Below, piece by piece: positions 46,864 through 49,189 of a DNA stretch of 64,000 nt; position 1 is the first letter of the stretch, and every line of letters starts with the position of its first letter. The DNA comes from Gammaproteobacteria bacterium (GTDB lineage: Bacteria; Pseudomonadota; Gammaproteobacteria; UBA4575): assembly GCA_965223115.1 (NCBI GenBank), contig OZ244982.1, positions 378,577 to 442,576 on the forward strand. Reading direction: 5' to 3'. The position numbers were made by a program, and so were the translations under genes. Under the pieces are notes generated by a model that saw only the letters and a list, made by a program, of their open reading frames with translations, was not told where the DNA came from and searched no databases.

Positions 46864-46995
46864 TGTTATAAAGCGCCCGCGCATAGCGCAAATACACTTT
46901 AAATTCACACGCGTATCGTCACATGTGGTTGGGTGCTCATTGTAGTTTCCACATGGGGTGCGCGGAGGTATAACCCGTAAGGAGCATTACATATC
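46864..46995 (+). promoter_or_regulatory. Putative rpsB-tsf promoter (extended -10 TGTTATAAA) and structured 5' leader
   Basis: TG-n-TATAAA at 46864-46872. The leader contains CATGTGG (46922-46928) / CCACATG (46949-46955) and long-range CCGCGCA (46877-46883) / TGCGCGG (46959-46965) pairings. An S2-autoregulated structured leader is known in E. coli and other gammaproteobacteria. Confidence 0.4.
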
Positions 46996-48255
46996 ATGGC
47001 GAATGTCACAATGCGTCAGATGCTAGAGGCTGGCGTGCATTTCGGGCATCAAACCCGATACTGGAATCCGAAAATGAGCCCTTATATTTTCGGTGAACGA
47101 AATAAGATACACATTATTAATCTTGAGAAAACATTACCTATGTTTCTCGATGCTGCGACATTTCTTGGAAATATGGTAGCGAATAAAGGGACCGTTTTGT
47201 TCGTAGGCACTAAACGTTCTGCACGAGATGCAATTCAAGAAGAGGCAATACGCTGTGGGATGCCGTACGTTAACCATCGTTGGTTGGGTGGCATGCTAAC
47301 TAATTTTAATACCGTAAAAAAATCTATTCAGCGTTTACAAGATCTTGAGCAAATCGCAAGTGGTGATGGGGTTGAACGCTTGAGTAAAAAAGAAGTATTG
47401 CTGCTAAAGCGTGAGCTTTTTAAATTAGATCGAAGTCTAGGTGGCATTAAAAACATGCCAAGTCTCCCGGATGTATTGTTTGTCATTGATGTAGGTTATG
47501 AAGCAATTGCTGTGAACGAGGCTAACAAGCTGGGAATTCCTGTAGTAGCAGTTGTAGATAGTAATAACAAAGTGGATGGTGTGGATTATGTTATTCCGGG
47601 TAACGACGATGCCATTCGTGCTATTAAGCTATATGCCTCACATATAGCTGATGCTGTCATAGAAGGCAAAGAAAGTTCTCGCATTATGTCTGGTAATGAG
47701 GATGATTTTGTCGAGATAGATGAAACTGGAAAAGTTGCGCAATCAGAGGAAAAAGTAAAGTCTAAGCCCAAGCAAAAAGTAACGGTTAAGAAAAAAATAA
47801 CTAGCCAAAGTCCTGAGAAGGAAGATTCGCCACAGTCTAGTTCTAATGATGGGACTCCAATTATAGATATAGAAGGTATTGGACCTAAATATGCAGAAGC
47901 CTTAGAAAAGATTGGTATTTCTTCAGTAGAAAAATTACTAGAAAAATGTGCTACAGCAGAAGCGCAAGCTAAATATGCTGAGCTGTCAGGAGTAAGTGAG
48001 AAATCGATAGAACGATGGGTAAAGATGAGTGACTTCTTTCGTTTAACAGGGGTCGGAGGGAATGAAGCTGAACTTTTAGAAGTGAGTGGTTTTAATTCTA
48101 TAGCAGATATAGCAATGGCAGATGCCGATGATGTATTGGCAAAGCTGACTGCATGTAATGAAGAGAAATCATTAGCACCCAGTGTACCAGATAAATCAAA
48201 TATTGAATCTTGGATTACACAGGCGAAATCTTTGCCAGCAATACTTACAAACTAA
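46996..48255 (+). CDS. rpsB: 30S ribosomal protein S2 with a C-terminal extension of about 170 aa (KE-rich linker plus two helix-hairpin-helix, DUF4332-like)
   Basis: The S2 core reads [55 protein letters not shown]....[16 protein letters not shown] continuous ORF then runs through [17 protein letters not shown]... to [17 protein letters not shown]... and [17 protein letters not shown]. Confidence 0.9.
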
Positions 48256-48292
48256 ATGTTTTTATTACACAAGAATTGATTTAGGAAGAGCA

Positions 48293-49189
48293 ATGCAAAT
48301 AACAGCAAGCATGGTAAAAGAACTGCGTGAACGCACTGGCGCAGGCATGATGGAATGTAAAAAAGCACTCACTGAGAGTAGTGGTGATATGGAAGCTGCA
48401 ATCGCTGAAATGCGTAAATCAGGTCAAGCTAAGGCAGATAAGAAAGCAGGACGTATTGCAGCAGAGGGGACGATTGCAATTGCAGTGTCTGATGATGGAT
48501 CATTGGCTGCAATTGTTGAAGTAAATTGTGAAACAGATTTTGTTGCTAAAGATGATCAGTTCCAATCATTTTCTAAGCAATTAGCCAATATAGTGCTTTT
48601 AAATAATTTAAATTCTGTAGCTGAGCTTGGTGATACTGCTATGGACTCAGGTCAGACAGTTGAGCAAACTCGTTTAGAATTGGTAACAAAAATAGGTGAA
48701 AATATTCAAGTGCGGCGTTTTCAAAAACAAAGTGCTGAAGGAGTAATAGCGAGTTATGCGCATGGCAAGCGCATTGGTGTGTTAGTTGACTATACTGGAG
48801 GGGCTGAAGCATTAGGTAAAGATATTGCTATGCATATTGCTGCAGTGAACCCTATCTGTGTTAGTACAAATGAAGTTCCAGCTGAAGTTTTGGATAAGGA
48901 AAGAGAGATTGCTAAAGCACAAGCTGATTCAAGTGGTAAGCCGCCTGAAATTGTTGAAAAAATGATACAAGGGAAGGTAAATAAATTTATAAAAGAGAAT
49001 ACTTTGCTTGGTCAGGCATTTGTTAAGGATGATAGTCAATCAGTAGAAAAATATTTAAAAAATGCTAACGCCACGGTGTATAAATTTATACGCTTCGAGG
49101 TGGGCGAAGGCTTAGAGAAAAGATCAGAAAACTTTGCTGATGAAGTCATGGCACAAGTTAAAGAGAGTGAAACCAAAGAAGATGATTAA
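48293..49189 (+). CDS. tsf: Elongation factor Ts
   Basis: ITASMVKELRERTGAGMMECKKAL (UBA-like N-terminus), VE.NCETDFVAK, IAMHIAA..P. The start is placed at ATG 48293 (AGGAAG upstream). Confidence 0.95.
   Translation: MQITASMVKELRERTGAGMMECKKALTESSGDMEAAIAEMRKSGQAKADKKAGRIAAEGTIAIAVSDDGSLAAIVEVNCETDFVAKDDQFQSFSKQLANIVLLNNLNSVAELGDTAMDSGQTVEQTRLELVTKIGENIQVRRFQKQSAEGVIASYAHGKRIGVLVDYTGGAEALGKDIAMHIAAVNPICVSTNEVPAEVLDKEREIAKAQADSSGKPPEIVEKMIQGKVNKFIKENTLLGQAFVKDDSQSVEKYLKNANATVYKFIRFEVGEGLEKRSENFADEVMAQVKESETKEDD

Follow-up and report, generated by a model that had tools for sequence, protein, structure and literature searches.

Ribosomal protein S2 with a tethered two-repeat DUF4332 domain in a gammaproteobacterial family: a candidate nucleic-acid-binding arm on the 30S subunit

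The rpsB gene in a window of 64,000 nucleotides (the whole stretch of gammaproteobacterial DNA that was analysed) raises the question whether ribosomal protein S2 (uS2) of this organism really carries a second domain at its C-terminus and, if so, what such a domain might do on the 30S subunit. An earlier note had described an open reading frame of 419 amino acids that continues from the S2 core through an extension. This was borne out by the list of open reading frames and by the raw sequence, in which positions 46996..48255 (+) form one frame of 419 codons plus TAA, with no stop and no frame change. The features of the locus are as follows:

46888..46974, + strand: t44 RNA, the 5' leader conserved ahead of rpsB in gammaproteobacteria (Rfam RF00127, 66.4 bits, gathering score 44, E 3.5e-14)
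46996..48255, + strand: rpsB open reading frame (TIGR01011, 332.6 bits; the single S2 core in the genome)
47020..47667, + strand: canonical uS2 core, residues 9-224 (PF00318, 1-216/216, E 7.6e-94)
47674..47859, + strand: flexible linker, residues 227-288, with an acidic EDDFVEID segment, a basic patch and then a Ser/Pro/Asp-rich part (predicted pLDDT <50 at 230-284)
47746..47805, + strand: conserved basic patch, residues 251-270, net charge +6 (K259 and K266 invariant in alignment A6)
47860..48030, + strand: DUF4332 repeat 1, residues 289-345, with the helix-hairpin-helix (HhH) hairpin IEGIGPK and two helices
48031..48252, + strand: DUF4332 repeat 2, residues 346-419, with the HhH hairpin LTGVGG and two helices; matches the PhaH-type HhH module
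48293..49189, + strand: tsf (EF-Ts), with its ATG at 48293 and its own Shine-Dalgarno (SD) sequence AGGAAG at 48283-48288

The assignment to uS2 clears the cut-off of the bacterial rpsB model (TIGR01011, rpsB_bact, NCBIfam) with 332.6 bits against 76.3, and PF00318 is matched over its full length with 313 bits. The context is that expected for a bacterial uS2 gene, single-copy, with t44 RNA upstream and tsf downstream; t44 RNA ahead of rpsB is the standard autoregulatory leader context of S2. The t44 element is located in the map-rpsB spacer and is overlapped by a sub-threshold match to the rpsB sRNA model RF01815 (22 bits). As had been claimed, tsf follows normally with an SD of its own, its start lying 37 nt past the rpsB stop. 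A search of the genome, a complete single contig of 2,667,808 bp, returned one S2 core and no second, short S2 gene. With no other S2 gene found, all 30S subunits should bear the DUF4332 domain unless it is cleaved off.

The same architecture, intact and without a frameshift, was found in the sister species (G001), in two other genera of the family (G019 and G009), on six named metagenome-assembled contigs labelled Thiotrichales or Gammaproteobacteria, and altogether in 61 clusters at 90% identity with lengths of 411-446 aa. A sequencing or assembly artefact that joins two genes that are separate in reality is ruled out by this recurrence in independent assemblies and in metagenomes of several sources and is considered vanishingly improbable, as the frame is also unbroken in a single-contig genome, the linker motifs are kept in frame among relatives, and no SD or start codon context lies ahead of the DUF4332 domain. 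A horizontal origin recognisable by composition was rejected as well, the extension having a G+C content of 38%, equal to that of the window.

The extension exists as proposed, but its start does not lie at 47716; it begins at about residue 227, some 14 codons earlier. An acidic segment of the EDDFVEID type is the usual end of gammaproteobacterial S2, and in the S2 alignment both this acidic motif and the basic motif that follows in the linker are conserved through the family. Pfam matched the complete DUF4332 profile (PF14229, 1-122/122) to residues 293-413 (E 1.7e-28; 99.7 bits, cut-off 23.2), together with two HHH_5 stretches, and a profile search at genome level gave 102.6 bits. When modelled alone by AlphaFold2 with a diverse alignment, the domain folds into eight helices with a pLDDT of 96.4 and a pTM of 0.89. 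The AlphaFold model of full-length S2 gives 81-94 for the domain and <50 for residues 230-284, and the domain is thus predicted to hang on a disordered tether of ~55-60 residues. The description of an S2 core, a Lys/Glu/Ser-rich linker and two HhH elements in the DUF4332 arrangement was in this way upheld by Pfam, AlphaFold and the orthologues, and both hairpins named in that description were found in the sequence.

In each half of the domain, an HhH hairpin is joined by two further helices, and a W-x-x-Q/M-A/S motif closes the unit. The profiles of repeat 1 and repeat 2 align with each other over 55 columns (hhalign, probability 96%, E 3.4e-9), and DUF4332 is therefore a single HhH unit of ~60 aa duplicated in tandem. 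The family invariants G14, D66, R69 and A130 are all present in the S2 copy, and both G-hydrophobic-G hairpins are nearly invariant.

Homologues of the domain were searched among 1.84 billion representatives at 50% identity, which yielded 2,898 relatives; among the best 150 of these, an S2 core was found in one, the representative of the S2-fusion clade described here. In the DUF4332 domain tree, the S2-borne copies form one clade (support 100/99) with a long stem (branch length 0.78), which points to a fusion that arose once, in one subclade of the gammaproteobacterial family (f1), and then diverged markedly. A derivation from the membrane-anchored DUF4332 paralogue of the same genome was ruled out, as the two fall into separate clades (support 99/90). 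Among the stand-alone DUF4332 genes the tree is a polytomy and singles out no donor; one such gene (P0089) sits on a contig of 1.3 kb, too short for its neighbourhood to be informative. Between orthologues, the DUF4332 domain shows a pN of 0.17-0.21 against a saturated pS of 0.65-0.86. The resulting dN/dS of ~0.07-0.12, next to 0.02-0.04 for the S2 core, indicates that the domain is under purifying selection.

A survey of S2 length across the clade, which the earlier note had suggested, revealed forms with two repeats, with one repeat, with other tails and with no tail. The family tree of S2 splits into one subclade without any HhH and another (100/99) that contains all HhH forms. One-repeat proteins of 348-359 aa occur in six genomes of the HhH subclade, three of which belong to the same genus as the two-repeat genome G019. 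In these proteins, the Pfam match is limited to DUF4332 positions 1-54, and repeat 1 runs straight into the end of repeat 2 (SEKSIE|SW..QAKS). Repeat 2 of the two-repeat form is only 24% identical to repeat 1 and resembles a generic DUF4332 repeat 2. It is not a copy of repeat 1, which rules out an origin of the two-repeat S2 by recent duplication of the one-repeat form, and the one-repeat proteins are therefore in-frame deletions of exactly one unit. Halving of the domain happened in at least one lineage and probably occurred more than once, although the tree of S2 by itself cannot count the events.

The HhH module is absent from the S2 of genera g3 and g10. S2 of g3 is 330-414 aa long and ends in low-complexity K/A/E tails, which in two genomes (G003 and G012) are histone-H1-like AKPKAKPK runs with a net charge of +8 and +9 and in another (G017, rpsB at L013:1501-2742) are made up of a 17-aa unit (AESAKKDAAEHAGDGKE) repeated in tandem about seven times, with a net charge of -15. 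The S2 tail thus turns over very quickly in this genus. In g10 the tail is missing, and no remnant of a lost extension was found after the short S2 of G010 and G016. Among the S2 tails of 32 relatives, lengths vary between 5 and 180 aa and net charges between -15 and +11, and the S2 C-terminus is a permissive site.

As to the function, a link to a known DNA-binding module provides the main clue. The C-terminal HhH module of the phasin PhaH is reported to bind DNA non-specifically and so to space polyhydroxybutyrate (PHB) granules along the nucleoid, a job done in PhaM and PhaF by histone-like tails (review, PMC13052382). The PhaH-type module (COG3743-like) matches the module of the gammaproteobacterial one-repeat S2 (hhalign, probability 97.1%, E 5.5e-11) as well as DUF4332 repeat 2 (probability 96.1%, E 2.8e-9), and on the basis of these profile-profile matches DUF4332 is a tandem pair of the same promiscuous unit. 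The reading preferred here, with a confidence that falls just short of even, is that the S2 domain is a flexibly tethered, sequence-independent binder of nucleic acid on the 30S subunit, along the lines of the nucleic-acid-binding appendage that the earlier note had put forward as a possibility. The most likely ligand would be DNA, as judged from the homologous PhaH module, through which PHB granules are attached to the nucleoid, and the basic patch at residues 251-270 would probably aid binding. The arm would leave the S2 C-terminus on the solvent side of the 30S subunit, beside the bS1 anchor and the SD-antiSD duplex, in keeping with the position of uS2, which anchors bS1 and borders that duplex (PMC10983998). 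The linker would be long enough to reach the chromosome, nascent transcripts or RNA polymerase, and the outcome might be that 30S subunits are favoured near sites of transcription. A conserved nucleic-acid-binding or docking arm at this place could affect the time and place at which 30S subunits encounter mRNA.

The homology to PhaH, the near-invariant hairpins and the conserved basic patch in front of the domain support binding, whereas the charge of the domain points the other way. All 61 S2-borne copies have a net charge of -5 to -10, with a mean of -7.3 against -1.6 +/- 4.1 for the family. The S2 copy lacks the family-typical K/R at residues 302, 304, 375 and 395 and gained acidic residues at six positions, which puts it at the acidic edge of the family. 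However, with net charges of -7 to +1 the PhaH-type modules are also neutral to acidic, and nucleic-acid binding is therefore not excluded by acidity alone.

The same charge would suit a protein-docking adaptor that is no nucleic-acid binder and recruits a partner such as the C-terminal domain of the RNA polymerase alpha subunit (alpha-CTD) to the S2 face of the 30S subunit, a possibility that is taken seriously but considered unlikely. A sequence search for a solved structure of DUF4332 returned none, its matches being S2 cores and a 28-aa HhH stretch of pol IV, and no whole-domain fold match was found either (best Foldseek E 0.016). The structure matches are to generic HhH or SAM-like units, one repeat at a time, with Z-scores of 5-8.6 (VIA-align). 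They include SAM domains, the entry 6ib8_C (TMt 0.71), which was counted for docking, and the acidic repeats AR2 and AR1 of NusA (2jzb_B, Z 7.2; 1u9l_B, Z 7.1; 5lm9_A, Z 7.2). In the TTC-B complex, KH1 of NusA contacts S2 and S5, and AR2 binds the alpha-CTD (bioRxiv 10.1101/2020.03.01.972380). AR1-AR2 are likewise tandem, acidic, C-terminal HhH-type units on a flexible attachment, and they act at the interface of RNA polymerase and the 30S subunit next to S2. However, the NusA scores are tied with those of DNA-binding HhH units (PolQ domain 5, the pol iota thumb, the RAD51 N-domain and UvrC, Z 6.4-8.6), and no sequence relationship between AR1-AR2 and the S2 domain is detectable. The S2 copy retains both G-hydrophobic-G hairpins, which argues against a mere docking role, whereas this signature is lost in the NusA AR units. 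The genome's own NusA frame is also of normal length (507 aa, with two weak HhH matches at the AR positions) and leaves no obvious gap for S2 to fill.

The variability of the S2 C-terminus in turn gives some weight to the idea that the tail is a largely neutral addition which is tolerated without a specific role, or that it is removed after translation. The wide range of length and charge among the tails of relatives, with tandem 17-aa repeats and K/A/P-rich runs among them, the absence of HhH from g3 and g10 and the halving of the domain would all fit. It also counts against the preferred reading that close relatives get by on a single repeat, on low-complexity tails that are unrelated and of either charge, or on no tail; the function of the arm is therefore dispensable. 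The reading of a neutral or removed tail is nevertheless rated as quite unlikely, as the strong purifying selection (dN/dS ~0.1, with synonymous sites saturated), the retention across more than 60 clusters and the very high confidence of the predicted fold speak against it.

Other HhH proteins of the genome have to be considered as possible partners. The profile search found only two DUF4332 domains, the one in S2 and one in a membrane-anchored protein of 217 aa, which is encoded outside the window (G000:C1:2054998-2055651; L002:1234-1887, + strand). This protein has an N-terminal transmembrane (TM) helix, a coiled coil and the DUF4332 domain (3.6e-24), and its gene start overlaps the stop of an upstream gene with BON and OmpA_C domains (L002:479-1237). 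Most of the family has orthologues of 209-229 aa, and these also occur in genomes that lack the S2 fusion. Two large proteins, also encoded outside the window (G000:C1:~2024300-2026210, a frame of ~635 aa, and ~1680360-1681980, a frame of ~535 aa), have a common layout in which an N-terminal TM helix is followed by a very long coiled coil and a K-rich linker. The former ends in two PhaH-type HhH modules and the latter in one (E 7e-13 to 8e-12 against NF045508), and both look like membrane-to-nucleoid tethers.

From these proteins a like-with-like pairing could be proposed, in which the S2 domain docks on membrane-anchored HhH proteins and ribosomes are held near the inner membrane. The 217-aa protein and the two larger ones would be at hand as partners, an N-terminal TM-like segment was seen in 63 of the 149 best DUF4332 representatives, and the TM-anchored paralogue is present in 4/4 genomes with a two-repeat S2. 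However, the paralogue also occurs in relatives without any S2 fusion and was not found in the one-repeat genomes G002, G006 and G004, so there is no co-occurrence signal, and the pairing is regarded as improbable.

The preferred reading of a tethered nucleic-acid binder gains context from the other carriers of the module. DUF4332 was found on a full L9 (P0121), on a full L31 (P0149) and on an MscS-type channel. Two metagenomic proteins (P0135 and P0150) consist of an S1 RNA-binding domain, an acidic linker and DUF4332; their S1 domain matches the last S1 domain of rpsA models, and as they begin with V, they may be 5'-truncated calls of full S1. If so, the neighbours S1 and S2 on the 30S subunit each gained the same tag in different lineages. 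Fusions of a ribosomal protein to DUF4332 or HhH were in sum seen for L9, L31, the S1 domain, L21, eL13 and L32e. The PhaH profile matches alphaproteobacterial S2 tails at 1e-13 to 8e-23, and further matches lie in the tails of small membrane-anchored proteins, L21 and NuoE. L21 with a PhaH-type module was observed at two loci (L047 and L048, 200-219 aa), and NuoE, subunit E of complex I, with a C-terminal PhaH-type HhH in two alphaproteobacterial genomes (G075 and G106; L049 and L054, open reading frames of 386-389 aa). Since the tag sits on ribosomal proteins across both subunits, it is unlikely to be aimed at the mRNA channel specifically, and it looks like a general tether.

The primary paper on PhaH is that of Salinas et al. 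(2023, Mol Microbiol 120:307), which is cited in PMC12678847. PhaH is the sole member of the HhH module family with experimental data. Literature searches on DUF4332 and COG3743 returned three incidental mentions and no functional study, and a search on the 'sunset domain', found in another S2 variant, returned nothing.

Compared with known systems, PhaH of Caulobacter crescentus (NF045508) is the closest functional model, as its C-terminal HhH module sits behind a basic linker and acts as a tether. PhaH has one HhH unit and the PHB granule as its cargo, whereas the S2 of the window has two units on a ribosomal protein and matches the PhaH model weakly (E 5e-4). The closest structural parallel is the long-form alphaproteobacterial S2 (NCBIfam NF008966 = PRK12311), in which an S2 core is likewise followed by a linker and by a C-terminal HhH unit with W-x-x-Q-A-K/R at its end; its name in CDD is 'S2/unknown domain fusion protein'. 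Its cut-off was passed over the full profile by 24 of 401 sampled genomes of the phylum, all 24 from outside the class of the window. The S2 of the window reaches 314.6 bits, below the cut-off of 526, and its alignment extends through the first repeat as far as residue 344. The alphaproteobacterial form has just one PhaH-type module, which goes unrecognised by Pfam, whereas the window encodes a full two-repeat DUF4332. As none of the gammaproteobacteria among the 401 sampled genomes carries a long-form S2 fusion outside family f1, the alpha- and gammaproteobacterial fusions are taken to be independent. With the sunset-domain variant of S2 (NF051451), only the core aligns (residues 1-265, 281.9 bits against a cut-off of 710).

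The other ribosomal protein fusions have the same layout, a ribosomal protein followed by a disordered linker and a C-terminal DUF4332 or single HhH, but they differ from S2 in their carriers, in their sites on the ribosome and in their unrelated lineages. Their DUF4332 copies also keep the basic residues of the family, which the S2 copy lacks. Independent fusions have placed the same HhH module on many ribosomal proteins, on membrane anchors, on complex I and on a phasin, and of these the phasin alone has been studied. It is conceivable, though doubtful, that HhH tags on ribosomal proteins (S1, S2, L9, L21, L31 and eL13), membrane anchors, NuoE and phasins form a general system that ties machines to the chromosome, here with 30S subunits held near the nucleoid and translation starting on nascent transcripts. 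If true, transcription-translation coupling would here have a built-in route that depends on no factor.

Already catalogued are ribosomal proteins with a tethered HhH tag, including the long S2 (PRK12311). New are the independent gammaproteobacterial fusion of S2 with a full two-repeat DUF4332, the divergent, acidic character of the S2-borne domain and a natural series among close relatives that comprises forms with two repeats, with one and without HhH. These natural variants make the function of the tag directly testable.
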